A stretch of 33,231 nucleotides of DNA from a virus (taxonomy: Duplodnaviria; Caudoviricetes), in the IMG/VR virus record IMGVR_UViG_3300005058_000153, positions 1 through 33,231 of that record, one strand, 5' to 3'. The notes under the pieces are model-generated. The model did not search any database, was not told the origin of the DNA, and saw only the letters and a list, made by a program, of their open reading frames with translations. A program made the translations under genes and the position numbers. This document shows positions 5,025 through 15,992 of this stretch, piece after piece. The first letter of the stretch is position 1. Each line of letters begins with the position of its first letter.

Positions 5025-5801
5025 ATGATGGCGAATAAAAGTGAAGTGAGAAAAGGCTTAGATATTGGGCGTGTGCTAGTGTATGGGGTTGCTTCGTTCG
5101 ATGCTTATGCGATGGGACGGGCATTTCATGTGTATGACCCTGCGGGTTGGGCGATAGGGAATGTGAATGTTGCTGGCTTGATTTTGGGTGCAGTTATCAA
5201 TTTGATAGTTGCGCAAGCGGCGATTCATTTGCCAGACTTGGCGGCTACGTTCTCTTCCTTAAAAGAGTCATTGCCTACTTTATCTAAAAAGATGGATAAA
5301 AAGCAGGTAGCACAACATAAAAAAGATTTGAAGAAGATGTTGAAGGCAGGCGCACGCAGTTTGTATTCACATATCGGCTATTTTGTGTTGCTGGGTTTAT
5401 CGGTGGTTTTGGTTGCACCTGCAATGTTTAATATTTGGAGTGAGGCTTTAGATTTTTCTGATACTTTCGTGAGCTTTATGGCTTTTGTTGGTTCAGTTGC
5501 GCCTGCTGTGGCAATTACGGTGGGTGGTTTTATCGCTAGCGACGCTGGGAGCGACAGTCAGCGACGCTCAGCGACGCTGGGAGCGACAGTCAGCGACGCT
5601 CAGCGACCAATTCAGCGACGCTCAGCGACCAAACCAGCGACGCTGTCAGCGAAAATTTATCGCTGTGAGTGTGGTGAAGAGTTTGTAAACCGAAATAAAT
5701 ATAGTGGTCACACTGGCAAATGCGTGAAGTATCAGGAAAAGAAGCGTGCGCAATTGGACCCAACTTTGTTGATTGACCCATCGAAGGTGGTGAAGCAATG
5801 A
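5025..5801 (+). CDS. Multi-pass membrane protein with C-terminal Zn-finger-like motif
   Basis: AAGGAG RBS; about 4 hydrophobic segments; CECG...HTGKC. Confidence 0.7.
   Translation: MMANKSEVRKGLDIGRVLVYGVASFDAYAMGRAFHVYDPAGWAIGNVNVAGLILGAVINLIVAQAAIHLPDLAATFSSLKESLPTLSKKMDKKQVAQHKKDLKKMLKAGARSLYSHIGYFVLLGLSVVLVAPAMFNIWSEALDFSDTFVSFMAFVGSVAPAVAITVGGFIASDAGSDSQRRSATLGATVSDAQRPIQRRSATKPATLSAKIYRCECGEEFVNRNKYSGHTGKCVKYQEKKRAQLDPTLLIDPSKVVKQ
5538..5653 (+). repeat. Array of 10 exact AGCGAC direct repeats (+1 variant) spaced 10-12 bp
   Basis: Copies at 5538, 5550, 5560, 5570, 5582, 5592, 5602, 5614, 5624, 5636; AGCGAA at 5648. Confidence 0.9.
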
Positions 5802-8883: not shown

Positions 8884-9864
8884 ATGAAATTTTTTGAAAC
8901 TGTGCGAGAGGCACTACGCACGAAGCATTATGCTTACCGCACTGAGAAAACGTATATGCACTGGATACGTCAATATGTGCGATTTGTGAAGCCGATTCAC
9001 CCGCGTGAGGCGGGTGTAGGTGGTGTGAAACGCTTCTTGACTTGTCTGGCAGTTGATAGGCAAGTTTCGGCATCTACTCAAAACCAAGCATTGGCGGCGT
9101 TGTTGTTTTTGTATAAGCTGTATGGCGTGGACTTGGGAAATTTAGAAATTGTCAAGGCAAAGAAATCTGTCTACTTGCCGACCGTGTTGACGCATGATGA
9201 AGCGATGCGTGTCATCGAGCAATTAGAGGGTCAGTATCGCATCATGGCGCAATTGATGTATGGAGGCGGGTTGCGTTTGATGGAGTGTTTGCGTTTGCGC
9301 GTGAAGGATGTTGATTTTGAAAATCGAACTTTGACATTGCGCGAGACGAAATCTAACCGAGACAGAGTCACTTGTTTGCCTGAATCGGTTGTATCTGCTT
9401 TGATGTTGCACTTAGCGAAGGTGAAAGCACAACACACGGAAGATTTTGCGAATGGTCGTGGTGAAGTTGAATTGCCGTTTGCGCTGGATAAGAAATATCC
9501 AAACGCACCTTTTGAATGGGCTTGGCAATATGTGTTTCCTGCACATGGATTTTCTAAAGACCCAAGAAGTGGCAGAGTTCGCCGACATCATGTTTATGAG
9601 ACGAGTGTTCAGAAGGCTATCCGTGCGGGTAGCAGAAAGGCAGGAATATACAAGCATGTAGGTCCGCATACGTTTCGTCATTCGTTTGCAACCGAGTTAC
9701 TCAAGAATCGTTATGACATTCGGACTGTGCAAGAATTACTTGGTCACAAGGATGTAAGAACGACGATGATCTATACCCATGTAACTTTGAATGGGAGCGG
9801 TGTGATTTCACCGATGGATGCGCCATCAGGCGTTATTAAACAGCGCGTTGCTGTTGAATCATGA
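8884..9864 (+). CDS. intI: Integron integrase
   Basis: [34 protein letters not shown], IntI-specific insertion [53 protein letters not shown]; catalytic R-K-H-R-H-Y all present. Confidence 0.96.
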
Positions 9865-9871
9865 GTTCGGC
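9853..9871 (+). other. Putative attI simple site, crossover G|TT at 9865/9866
   Basis: GTTGAAT-CATGA-GTTCGGC (7-5-7); GTTCGGCTTC is the exact reverse complement of GAAGCCGAAC (10032-10041) ending cassette 1. Confidence 0.75.
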
Positions 9872-9893
9872 TTCTTTGTGAAAGGATAAACCT

Positions 9894-10076
9894 ATGGCTC
9901 ATACTTGTCCTGAATGTTGGAAAATTTGTACCTGTCAAGGTGATTGGGATGATATTGATTTTGGCGATTGGTATGGTTGCGAGTGTGATTGTCAAAAGTT
10001 TCCAGATATGAGTGACTTCGTTGGCGATGACGAAGCCGAACACAACGCGCACCTGACAAGTGGCGGTCAGGCGTAA
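9894..10076 (+). CDS. Cassette 1: small Cys/Asp-rich protein
   Basis: AAGGA RBS; 60 aa, 7 Cys; ends inside attC1. Confidence 0.75.
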   Translation: MAHTCPECWKICTCQGDWDDIDFGDWYGCECDCQKFPDMSDFVGDDEAEHNAHLTSGGQA

Positions 10077-10126
10077 AAAATGGATAGGTTCACGCCGCCA
10101 CTTGCAGGTAGCGCAAACCGTTCGGC
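10035..10126 (+). other. attC site 1 (92 bp)
   Basis: R'' GCCGAAC, L'' GCGCACCT, stem CAAGTGGCG/CGCCACTTG, L' AGGTAGC, R' GTTCGGC; unpaired C and A on top strand. Confidence 0.9.
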
Positions 10127-10149
10127 GGCTTCATCCCAAAGGTGAAAAA

Positions 10150-10530
10150 ATGTTTCCACGAAATCACGGCAAAACACAGCATCGTAAAATAATTGCTGGA
10201 GCAGTTATAAAAAATACACTTGATGAAGTAATCAGGCTTCTTGTGAAATTTGGAGATGCTGCATTATTTTCAGACACTCAAATCAGCAAAGCGGCACTTG
10301 AACTAACCGAATTAGAGTTTGAGTTATTACAACTTCGTCAAGAAAATATAGAGTTGAAAGCGCGTCTCGATACGAACCGCGCTCAGGTCAAGGCTATGGC
10401 AACCGAGAAACGCCGCCGAACACAGCGTGCACTGGACGTGTGCCCTGCGTGCGCTGGCAAAGGTAATATTCAAATCGGTGTTTATAGCGAAACGTGTTCA
10501 GCCTGTCACGGTACGGGCACACGCCAGTAA
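10150..10530 (+). CDS. Cassette 2: coiled-coil protein with C-terminal CxxCxGxG Zn-finger pair
   Basis: AAGGTG RBS before ATG 10150; CPACAGKG and CSACHGTG. Confidence 0.75.
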   Translation: MFPRNHGKTQHRKIIAGAVIKNTLDEVIRLLVKFGDAALFSDTQISKAALELTELEFELLQLRQENIELKARLDTNRAQVKAMATEKRRRTQRALDVCPACAGKGNIQIGVYSETCSACHGTGTRQ

Positions 10531-10545
10531 CGCAAACCGTTAGAT
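10415..10545 (+). other. attC site 2 (131 bp)
   Basis: R'' GCCGAAC, L'' GTGCACTG, stem CGTGTGCCC/GGGCACACG, L' CAGTAAC, R' GTTAGAT. Confidence 0.9.
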
Positions 10546-10569
10546 GCTAGTCTTTCCTAAAGGTGTCGC

Positions 10570-10908
10570 ATGAGAAAGTCACTCAAACAGAAACTTCTTG
10601 AAAAGCTCCACAAGGAGCATGGCATAATGCTCGACCCTCTTGATATGGTGAGTTATCGGCGTAATGGGTTTGGTTCCCGAATCGTGTCATGGGGCACAAT
10701 TCACAACAAGCCCGCATATCAGAGTTTTGAAACTATGGCTGATTGCTTGAAATATCCTACAAAACTTGTGCGTGGAAATTTTGGGCGAGACAGAGAAATC
10801 ACTATCGAGATTGATTTTGAAAAGATTGCCGCATCTAACAATGCGTTAATTGACGAGTGGTGGGCTGTGGTTTCGAGTGGACGAGTTATAACCACCACTC
10901 GCAATTAA
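10570..10908 (+). CDS. Cassette 3: hypothetical protein
   Basis: AAGGTG RBS; 112 aa; stop in L' of attC3. Confidence 0.75.
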   Translation: MRKSLKQKLLEKLHKEHGIMLDPLDMVSYRRNGFGSRIVSWGTIHNKPAYQSFETMADCLKYPTKLVRGNFGRDREITIEIDFEKIAASNNALIDEWWAVVSSGRVITTTRN

Positions 10909-10923
10909 CGCTCGCCGTTGGGC
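10833..10923 (+). other. attC site 3 (91 bp)
   Basis: R'' ATCTAAC, GCGTTAATTG-A-CGAGTGGTGG / CCACCACTCG-CAATTAACGC, R' GTTGGGC; GCATCTAAC complements cassette start GTTAGATGC. Confidence 0.9.
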
Positions 10924-10943
10924 GCAGAGGCAAAGGTAACTTT

Positions 10944-11612
10944 ATGCGAGTATTAAACCTGTACGCGGGCGTTGGTTGTAATCGTTTGCTGTGGGAAGGC
11001 GTAGAAGTTACAGCCGTTGAATACAGCGCGGATATTGCCGAAGTTTACAAAGACCTATATCCACAAGATGAAGTCATTGTTGCAGATGCACACGCCTATC
11101 TTTTAGAACATTACAAAGAGTTCGATTTTATTTGGTCAAGTCCGCCATGCCAAACGCACAGCCAAATCCGTTATAACATTGGCTACAAGGCTAATCGTAA
11201 ATACACAAAGGTCAAAGCAAAATATCCCGACATGAAACTTTACGAGGAAATCCTTATGCTGAAATATTATTGTCAAGGCTTGTGGGTAGTTGAAAACACA
11301 ATCCCATTTTATCCACCGCTTGTGGAGGGCGTAAAAACTGGAGGTCATATCTGGTGGAGTAACTTTGAAATCACGCCCATTGAACACGGCACACGCGGAC
11401 ATCGTGGCGGAACAGTTGAAACCCTGCAAGACCGAAAGGCTATCAATCTTAATAAATACAAGATTGGAAACAAGCGTCAAATCTTGCGGAATTGCGTTGA
11501 GCCAGAGGTAGGCAAGCATGTCTTTCTTTGCGCCAAACAAAAGATGCACCCGACCGATGGTGGGCTTTCTGCTTCGGACAGTGAATCCACACCCGCCACC
11601 ATCGGCGGGTAA
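10944..11612 (+). CDS. Cassette 4: orphan C5 cytosine DNA methyltransferase (short type)
   Basis: Motif I VLNLYAGVG, motif IV SSPPCQ, motif VI VVEN, motif X-like LRNCV; AAGGT RBS before ATG 10944. Confidence 0.85.
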   Translation: MRVLNLYAGVGCNRLLWEGVEVTAVEYSADIAEVYKDLYPQDEVIVADAHAYLLEHYKEFDFIWSSPPCQTHSQIRYNIGYKANRKYTKVKAKYPDMKLYEEILMLKYYCQGLWVVENTIPFYPPLVEGVKTGGHIWWSNFEITPIEHGTRGHRGGTVETLQDRKAINLNKYKIGNKRQILRNCVEPEVGKHVFLCAKQKMHPTDGGLSASDSESTPATIGG

Positions 11613-11626
11613 TCCCAACGTTCGGC
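11532..11626 (+). other. attC site 4 (95 bp)
   Basis: R'' GCCAAAC, L'' ATGCACCC, stem CCGATGGTGG/CCACCATCGG, L' GGGTAAT, R' GTTCGGC. Confidence 0.9.
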
Positions 11627-11643
11627 GGCTTCGTGAGGTAAAA

Positions 11644-12057
11644 ATGATTATTCCGAGAGTTGGAGATTTTTGGGAATTTCGGCCTACGAGTGGCAAGAAG
11701 CACACCACAAAGAAACGCATCAAGCGTATCTATTGGTCTGCGAGTAACGTCACTGGGCGCATGTGTCCGTGGATTGAATGGAGTCACACACCGAAAGCGC
11801 GGCACATTGGAAATATCCGTGTGAAATATTTTTTGAAAGAGCGAGCGGTCAGGCGCATCAGTAGCGCCGCCCAACCCGCGCTTGGGTCTATCAAGTCAGC
11901 GCGAAAGGCGAAGTCATCCGCCCAAAACTACGTTGCAGATTTGAAAATCTGCATAACGGAATCCGAAGGAAAATCTTATCCATGCCTACCAAATGAATCT
12001 TGGAAGTGGATAGAGATAGAGCAGGATGAGTTTGCGAAACTCGAAAGGAGCATATGA
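11644..12057 (+). CDS. Cassette 5 ORF A: basic hypothetical protein
   Basis: GAGGT RBS before ATG 11644, just after R' of attC4. Confidence 0.7.
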   Translation: MIIPRVGDFWEFRPTSGKKHTTKKRIKRIYWSASNVTGRMCPWIEWSHTPKARHIGNIRVKYFLKERAVRRISSAAQPALGSIKSARKAKSSAQNYVADLKICITESEGKSYPCLPNESWKWIEIEQDEFAKLERSI

Positions 12058-12290
12058 AAAATGAATTTGTCTTTTGCGAAAGGTGTGGCGCAAAACTAAC
12101 AACCCAAAAAAGTGGTGAATATAACGTCATCTGGCTTGAATACGATCAACGCACAGGAACGTACACCAACAAAGAAGTGCCCGCTGAATTTTCACAAGGC
12201 GGTTTTCCATTCGGTAAAGATTGCGCAAAGATTGTTCTGGGAGAGCATGAAACCGCCGAATCCGAATCCACATCTCAGGTGGTTGCCTAG
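12054..12290 (+). CDS. Cassette 5 ORF B: small Zn-binding hypothetical protein
   Basis: AAGGAG RBS; CERC...FGKDCA; ATGA overlap. Confidence 0.7.
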   Translation: MKNEFVFCERCGAKLTTQKSGEYNVIWLEYDQRTGTYTNKEVPAEFSQGGFPFGKDCAKIVLGEHETAESESTSQVVA

Positions 12291-12321
12291 CGCCCCGCGC
12301 TGGTAAAGCGCCCCGTTAATA
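12291..12321 (+). other. Right half (L'-R') of a disrupted attC5; end of array
   Basis: C-TGGTAAA-GCGCCCC-GTTAATA has the same layout as the attC1-4 right ends; matching left piece at 11869-11884. Confidence 0.6.
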
Positions 12322-12373
12322 AAATACTGAATAAATTTGTTGTATAATAATTTTTGAAAGGAGGCAGAACAAA

Positions 12374-12465
12374 TAAATAGAAAAGCACTTCCTGCAATAA
12401 GCGGGAAGATTGTCGGAAGAATGCGCCCGACGACTCAACTGAGTCGTCGGGCGCATTCTATTTTT
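12374..12465 (+). promoter_or_regulatory. Structured leader copy 1 (hairpin + antiterminator/terminator)
   Basis: CTTCCTGC/GCGGGAAG hairpin; long perfect stem AGAATGCGCCCGACGACTCA/TGAGTCGTCGGGCGCATTCT + T run; near-identical copy at 15908. Confidence 0.75.
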
Positions 12466-12497
12466 AGTAGTTATTCAAATTCAAAAGGAGATTTGAA

Positions 12498-12929
12498 ATG
12501 AAATTAGATATTGAAAAAGTTTTTATCACACTGGGTTTGCCTGTTGGGTTAATCTCTGTGTTTGGCGCAGTACTGATTTACTTAGGCTTGTCACTTGATG
12601 CAGTGCTTACCATTGCAGGTAGTATGGCAGGTCTGCAAGCATTGTTCAGTCTTGGTATTGATGTGTCGAAGTGGACAGGCGCAGTCAATGACGGCGATGC
12701 AGGTAAATGGTCTGCGCTTCTTAACTTGATTGGAGTTGTGTTGATTGCCTTCACACTGTATTGGAATCCAATCTTTGACTTTTCTACATTGGATGCTCAA
12801 TTGGCTGACTTTGCTAAGTTCCTTGCGATGGCGTTTAGTTATGTTATTCAAATCGCTGGCACAAAGTGGGTTCATCAGTTCACTACAAAGGGACTTGGCG
12901 TGAAAGCATTTAGCAAGTCCAGTGCCTAA
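12498..12929 (+). CDS. Four-TM membrane protein (possible holin)
   Basis: AAGGAG RBS; hydrophobic helices and basic C-terminus; function inferred. Confidence 0.55.
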   Translation: MKLDIEKVFITLGLPVGLISVFGAVLIYLGLSLDAVLTIAGSMAGLQALFSLGIDVSKWTGAVNDGDAGKWSALLNLIGVVLIAFTLYWNPIFDFSTLDAQLADFAKFLAMAFSYVIQIAGTKWVHQFTTKGLGVKAFSKSSA

Positions 12930-15852: not shown

Positions 15853-15907
15853 GCAGGTTGATGGTTTGCTAGGGTGCCCCCCTCACTCTGGCGACCATCA
15901 ATAAAAC

Positions 15908-15992
15908 TAAATAGAAAAGCACTTCCTGCGATAGGCGGGAAGGAAATCGGAACAATGCGCCCGATGACTCAATTGAGTCATCGGGCGTTTTT
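15908..15992 (+). promoter_or_regulatory. Structured leader copy 2 (hairpin + antiterminator/terminator)
   Basis: Homologous to 12374-12465; stem CGCCCGATGACTCA/TGAGTCATCGGGCG + TTTTT. Confidence 0.75.

Follow-up and report, generated by a model that had tools for sequence, protein, structure and literature searches.

In the phage DNA analyzed here, attC2 is probably an integron-type attC site whose loop is at the same time the conserved, in-frame end of a gene and codes for a finger predicted to bind one zinc ion; the bodies of such sites are likely exchanged by recombination at the left arm. Because stem changes are compensatory and Cys/Gly codon positions remain unchanged despite a variable loop, both the hairpin and the protein layer of attC2 look selected at the sequence level. 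The whole stretch of DNA analyzed, 33,231 nucleotides of virus record IMGVR_UViG_3300005058_000153, is referred to as the window.

Phage, integron integrase and host

The window contains terminase, portal, protease, coat and HNH genes. Its integron integrase gene is located just ahead of the packaging genes, and small cassettes follow 3' on the same strand, separated by attC1 to attC4 (Table 1). The integrase scored 407.7 bits against a TIGR02249 cut-off of 265; catalytic motifs and the IntI-specific insertion were located in its sequence. Six viral contigs carry integrases 76–81% identical to it. In all seven phage integrases examined, the sequence is common up to the GTT of the putative attI and divergent beyond it. 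The layout is identical in the seven as well (the window and L001–L006), with the putative attI over the integrase stop and a downstream, co-directional array.

The phage host is likely a member of the Anaerolineales. The right-arm pattern of the sites matches arrays in Anaerolineales/Chloroflexota genomes, and a related integrase (E ≤ 1e-60) was found in 69 of 201 Anaerolineales genomes, the top matches being 52–59% identical. Among chromosomal arrays an arm was seen at 7 of 25 loci, three times on the opposite and four times on the same strand.

Table 1 Features of the integron region in the window, with the parts of attC2.
Feature	Position	Strand	Remarks
Integron integrase gene	8884..9864	+	TIGR02249; upstream of and co-oriented with cassettes
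Putative attI	9835..9871	+	overlaps integrase stop codon; core GTT at 9865
attC1	10035..10126	+	bottom-strand hairpin z -7.05; cassette 1 ORF (9894-10076) stops within attC1 loop
Cassette 2	10120..10539	+	GTT of attC1 to GTT of attC2
Cassette 2 ORF, 126 aa	10150..10530	+	predicted long helices, then attC-encoded tail
attC2, 131 nt	10415..10545	+	sequence, folds, covariation
attC2 R''	10415-10421	+	GCCGAAC
attC2 L''	10425-10435	+	followed by unpaired A at 10436
attC2 inner stem, 9 bp	10437-10445 with 10515-10523	+	
First CxxCxGxG motif (C98-G105)	10441..10464	+	only C98-P99 in stem
attC2 loop, 69 nt	10446-10514	+	unpaired
Second CxxCxGxG motif (C116-G123)	10495..10518	+	only G123 in stem
attC2 L'	10524-10533	+	contains TAA stop at 10528-10530
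attC2 R'	10539-10545	+	GTTAGAT
attC3	10833..10923	+	cassette 3 ORF (10570-10908) runs through, stops at L' TAA; no Cys motif
attC4	11532..11626	+	C5 DNA-methylase-like ORF (10944-11612) runs through, stops at L' TAA; no Cys motif

Anatomy, folding and signs of mobility of attC2

The last 36 codons and the stop of the cassette 2 ORF lie within attC2, and the encoded C-terminus reads ...TQRALDV-CPACAGKG-NIQIGVYSET-CSACHGTG-TRQ*. The initial annotation, made from the sequence alone, was thus right in placing a whole CxxCxGxG pair inside the recombination site. It was also right that the stem codes for V97-C98-P99 and G123-T124-R125, but only one of four cysteines and one of four motif glycines are paired; the 69-nt loop, outside the stem, codes for the remaining six Cys and Gly of the motifs. 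When the loop centre was shuffled with the arms kept, two motifs in a sense frame appeared in 0 of 200,000 shuffles and one motif in 167.

The R'' and R' cores contain AAC and GTT, the purine at the third Y position of R'' being a common variant in this attC family, and the L box and the inner stem are paired, leaving a single extrahelical base. In its array form, the bottom strand of attC2 gave a z of -1.06, a stability no better than that of shuffles; the values for attC1, attC3 and attC4 were -7.1, -5.6 and -4.5. The R box is completed only through pairing of R'' with the 5' end of its own cassette (-28.0 versus -21.6 kcal/mol), and complementarity between this end and the R'' region is full, at 10 of 10 bases. 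Across phage cassettes, R'' likewise pairs better with the start of its own cassette than with that of the following one (5.6 versus 3.7 of 8 bases, n = 125), as it does in Cys-rich cassettes alone (5.8 versus 3.7, n = 25), which is the trace expected from cassette movement at R' in the established integron model (accessible text of PMC5027507). All 84 stem cells are paired in the four full attC2 sites, and four pairs are changed on both sides, in a small covariation set of these four sites with the structure taken from the window; some of the compensated changes cost an amino-acid change. An Rfam search gave no matches in 9700-12600.

Different DNA follows attC2 in L005 and in contigs, and contigs cover cassette 2 in four of four runs where cassette 3 is nearly uncovered. 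One contig from an RNA run spans ORF 10150-10530 and the loop, which cannot show transcription. Loose contig ends near R'' were rejected as a map of junctions, since they may come from other family members with the same arms.

With integron attCs as described in the accessible text of PMC5027507 (hairpins with R''/L''/VTS/L'/R'), attC2 shares the AAC/GTT cores, the L box, the extrahelical base, a length within 57-141 nt, a cognate IntI nearby and the complementarity of R'' to its own cassette start. Unlike them, it is coding throughout, with the stop in L' instead of at or before R'', and its variable loop appears to be under protein-level selection. For the ACID annotation tool, the accessible text of PMC2674596 gives 15 bp as the limit of ORF/attC overlap.

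A predicted DnaJ-type finger in the tail

The tail is DnaJ-type in its motif and is not a DnaJ protein. By sequence and model it consists of two CxxCxGxG knuckles joined by a beta-hairpin, the arrangement of a DnaJ-type Cys4 single site. Modelled alone, the tail formed a beta-hairpin with a pLDDT of 83; in the full-length model its pLDDT was 50–59. The best rows of a fold search with the tail model were the fingers of DnaJ, UvrA, lambda Q and anti-TRAP, none of them at E ≤ 0.001. Comparison with the DnaJ cysteine-rich domain 1EXK gave a phmmer E of 1.1e-4 and 1.6 Å over 33 columns. The tail is alike to this domain and to the CxxCxGxG fingers of anti-TRAP, lambda Q and UvrA in motif, spacing and predicted beta-hairpin. 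However, the DnaJ domain has four motifs and the tail two, hence one site; there is no J domain, and scores stay below family cut-offs, with 18.4 bits against 32.7 for Pfam DnaJ_CXXCXGXG (PF00684). PHROGs yielded weak matches only, to unknown-function and Q-like families, and the best score in the ESM Atlas was 0.78, with no informative match. Based on its motif, the tail is predicted to bind zinc.

Pfam searches with 30 of the 35 Cys-rich tails found a match at E ≤ 0.02 for 11, one of which reached the cut-off. The tails of L599, L647, L695, L089 and L257 resemble RanBP2-type W-x-C-x2-C...C-x2-C fingers, a family assignment that Pfam did not confirm.

Conservation and selection on the tail

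Both motifs are present in 31 of 37 homologs, the remaining six having the same N-terminus with different tails. Conversely, 36 proteins with an arm-coded flank and the tail fall into at least 12 N-terminal clusters. This set was drawn from the homologs and a search of 1.84 billion representatives with a filter that itself required the cysteines, so that Cys invariance in this tally is partly built in. An attC-coded tail on many unrelated small proteins suggests that these recombination sites probably also serve as protein modules that can be swapped.

As a test blind to the protein, contigs of four runs were placed on attC2 by DNA likeness. Here, 26 of the 69 loop positions vary, whereas the Cys/Gly codons of the motifs do not vary at their 12 first and second positions (p = 0.0017). 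The changes include several at third positions and one Ser AGC/TCN switch.

The dN/dS across the attC, which the annotation had proposed as a check, points in the same direction. For the unpaired loop it was 0.44, pooled over 10 non-overlapping pairs, and 1.61 and 0.97 in the other sense frames. The five Cys-rich pairs gave 0.26 and the five Cys-poor pairs 0.72, not significant (p = 0.18); the window/L005 pair alone is weak, with 8 synonymous changes in 16 sites and 14 non-synonymous in 50. Non-coding control loops gave 0.88 in the corresponding frame and 0.73 (p = 0.002) in another, so the noise floor of dN/dS is not 1. Finally, a 1-nt indel keeps one loop family in frame with both frame-1 and frame-2 genes, and frame-keeping one-base indels are also found in L706 and P0042.

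A class of phage attCs read through in frame

The coding attC2 belongs to a class of phage attCs that are read through in frame. Sites were collected by arm patterns only, in addition to loci with integrase relatives, and kept if two complementary arms were present, which left 199 viral, 93 metagenome and 55 genome records. The loose viral pattern produced mostly chance matches, and only two-arm-filtered sites were used. Of the viral sites, 140 are entered by an ORF that starts upstream and has 40 codons or more; after removal of 13 without a stop triplet in L', 127 remained.

The frame of the entering ORF equals that of the L' stop in 104 of these 127 sites, with one third expected (70 of 80 when counted per family), and 96 of the 127 ORFs stop exactly there. 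The match was robust to other thresholds and held in a right-arm-only subset (51/67). Elsewhere, ORFs enter only 2 of 55 genome-collection attCs and 5 of 93 metagenome sites. For the genome collection, 45 of 55 loops have an open L' frame as well, though non-coding, so openness alone proves nothing. In 29 of 55 families the ORF frame contains CxxC, versus 12 of 275 other frames, and 37 of 96 tails have three or more cysteines.

A 131-nt arm-only scan of metagenomes returned mostly non-coding host-type sites and three DnaJ-type loops, with no deep alignment. Other loop-coded tails (L091, L129, L178, L503, L115 and others) are hydrophobic and possibly membrane-spanning, at sites of 123-126 nt, or rich in Lys/Arg, at sites of 105-109 nt. 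L114 is a perfect-ended palindrome that has a right arm at either side, so that two R'/L' arms face each other; inverted or top-strand recombination may have produced it.

Origin of the loop

Two origins had been put forward by the initial annotation: an attC that arose from a Zn-finger coding sequence, or a variable loop recruited as a protein domain. The recruited loop is supported by purifying selection, by a conserved frame with indels that compensate for shifts in it, and by the fusion of the tail to many genes. The former origin, in which the C-P and G-x-G codons of the finger seeded the palindrome, appears very improbable. In its R, UCS and L arms, attC2 has what non-coding sites of the family have in general: its R and L arms are those of the 55 genome-collection attCs, mostly from Anaerolineales/Chloroflexota where arrays were seen, and 53 of these are entered by no ORF. 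Free CxxCxGxG pairs do have a modest built-in complementarity in this register (mostly 4–5 of 12 pairs, 3 expected), which counts in favour of such an origin. Nonetheless, the 43 free double-motif stretches in the collected loci have no arms, and none of them exceeds 7 of 12 pairs in the register of the stem; four higher-scoring rows proved on inspection to be three variant attCs and one ambiguous case. Close tail homologs all have arm-coded flanks, and searches of representatives and collected loci found no close free-standing parent of the tail. Searching 401 genomes from the order of G001 with the tail yielded 39 matches, all of them weak (E 1.7e-4 or worse); the 30 loci retrieved for these hold DnaJ-like proteins or free multi-repeat fingers, and those inspected lack arms. 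The generic arms, and free fingers that do not have them, thus speak against this finger as the source of the attC.

Where the recruited loop came from is a separate matter. A likeness to host-type loops was not detected for Cys-rich loops (mean z 0.31 over 35 families, p = 0.13), nor did this comparison detect a gradual descent from them. The loop may therefore have captured coding DNA, which also gives some room to a finger origin. On the other side, 34 of the 35 Cys-rich families measure a host-like 122-131 nt (46 of 55 host sites are 129-131 nt), and Cys-poor tails keep their likeness to host loops (mean z 1.04, p = 0.002). The attC2 loop may stem from gene capture or may have evolved in place, and the clue to cassette creation that the annotation had seen in it is an indirect one.

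L707, L713, L727 and L735 are small free-standing proteins of host-order genomes with four CxxCxGxG repeats and no attC arms; they are possible loop donors. In P0037, L134 and P0074, a relic attC left arm and Cys-rich loop lie inside the gene body, followed by a second attC. These relic arms suggest that loops can be absorbed when a new attC is added, with possible gene growth by accretion of attC modules.

Read-through and proposed exchange of tails

We propose the following sequence of events. Bottom-strand IntI recombination at R' would carry gene and attC as one cassette. In compact co-oriented phage arrays, ORFs running through the hairpin would then be selected, probably because translation removes the barrier that attC mRNA poses to downstream expression. 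According to section 3.2 of a review (PMC8876359, accessible text), the stem-loops of attC are a block to ribosomes that can be relieved by a short ORF inside the site. Both the co-orientation of the arrays and the weak conservation of Cys-poor tails are in line with this. An SD-like motif of their own in 50 of 77 downstream cassettes weakens this coupling step. Some loops may have acquired or evolved compact Cys4 folds, kept as modules of protein stability or interaction. Short-homology exchange within the ~15-nt AAC...L'' stretch would finally re-pair gene fronts with tails, and one-base indels would mend the frame where needed.

If only translation through the hairpin mattered, as relief of the mRNA barrier with a compact stop, the peptide would be a tolerated by-product without function. 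The reported relief by internal ORFs, the Cys-poor tails that are in frame yet weakly conserved, and the tolerance of one gene for several tails would all be expected. We regard this as improbable as a full account, since it leaves the dN/dS of 0.26 in Cys-rich loops and the untouched Cys/Gly positions unaccounted for, and it fails on the CxxC enrichment limited to the ORF frame and on indels that restore the finger frame.

The place of exchange can be narrowed by comparing pairs of cassettes. R'' is common to 10 of 10 same-gene pairs, and the L'' triplet to 24 of 32 same-loop pairs (random 15%), these junction pairs not being independent. As R'' tracks the gene and L'' the loop, the boundary lies within a conserved stretch of ~15 nt. 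The spacer (UCS) tracks neither, being common to 4 of 10 same-gene and 12 of 32 same-loop pairs (random 28%). This spread of the boundary fits short-homology exchange, which is our preferred reading over top-strand recombination by IntI.

According to the latter, attC x attC recombination on the top strand, at R'' (AA|C), would give a gene the next attC body and turn the integron into a shuffler of C-terminal domains. The gene/body boundary does include AA|C, and natural attCs recombine to a measurable extent at R'' on the top strand (accessible texts of PMC5027507 and PMC9892861). Moreover, the bottom-strand purine skew is lost in Cys-rich loops (0.51 in 32 families versus 0.64 at 55 sites, p = 7e-12), as is the bottom-strand stability bias; both are linked to strand selectivity in the accessible text of PMC5027507. 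Yet a fixed AA|C cut should move the UCS with the loop, at odds with its matching in so few same-loop pairs and with L005 and L630, whose loops are identical while the UCS differs. Loss of the skew may simply follow from coding, and the 55 control sites are mostly one family. We therefore consider tail swapping by IntI possible but doubtful. In its widest and equally tentative form, phage integrons would be natural domain shufflers in which the attC body is a mobile, exon-like C-terminal module (dozens of distinct Zn ribbons, basic or hydrophobic tails); IntI would re-pair modules at R'' on the top strand and reorder cassettes on the bottom strand, spent modules would be absorbed and genes would grow by site accretion.

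Relation to known systems

Integrons and CALINs of phages have been described with attC arrays and methyltransferase cassettes, as here, and IntI1 was able to recombine some of the phage attCs (Qi et al. 2023, PMC9892861, accessible text). The present array differs in its phage-specific IntI clade and its downstream, co-oriented position, and a term search of the accessible text of that paper found no mention of 'in-frame', 'VTS' or 'Chloroflex'. Synthetic attCs in protein linkers and lacZ likewise let one sequence serve as attC and protein, with module shuffling proposed as a use (Nivina et al. 2020, PMC7439510, accessible text). Those sites are engineered and linker-like with 3-21 nt loops, whereas attC2 is natural, with a 69-nt loop and a predicted folded domain. 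Translation across a recombination site with a site-supplied stop is also known from short ORFs in attC and from ORF-11 in attI1, which aid downstream translation (review PMC8876359, accessible text); these are separate short regulatory ORFs, while here the main cassette ORF runs through and carries a conserved motif. A literature search of accessible full texts did not find natural attC loops coding for conserved domains.

The attC loop is treated as an unconstrained spacer. Here, a natural loop appears as a selected protein motif that moves separately from the gene, which makes the coding attC2 a natural counterpart to engineered protein-embedded attCs. Pairings of gene and attC body form a countable record that bears on how cassettes are made, and coding attCs are a direct target for assays of top- versus bottom-strand recombination.

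Further observations in the window

Two degenerate attC-like stretches lie at 11867-11940 and 12256-12320; the fold of neither exceeds shuffles, and one of the two is wholly within ORF 11644-12057. An 83-nt repeat, 87% identical and containing a perfect 20-bp palindrome, occurs after the array (12371-12459) and after the terminase gene (15905-15987). Short direct repeats of 10, 12 and 22 nt, possibly iterons, are located at 5538-5645 within ORF 5025-5801, beside replication genes.
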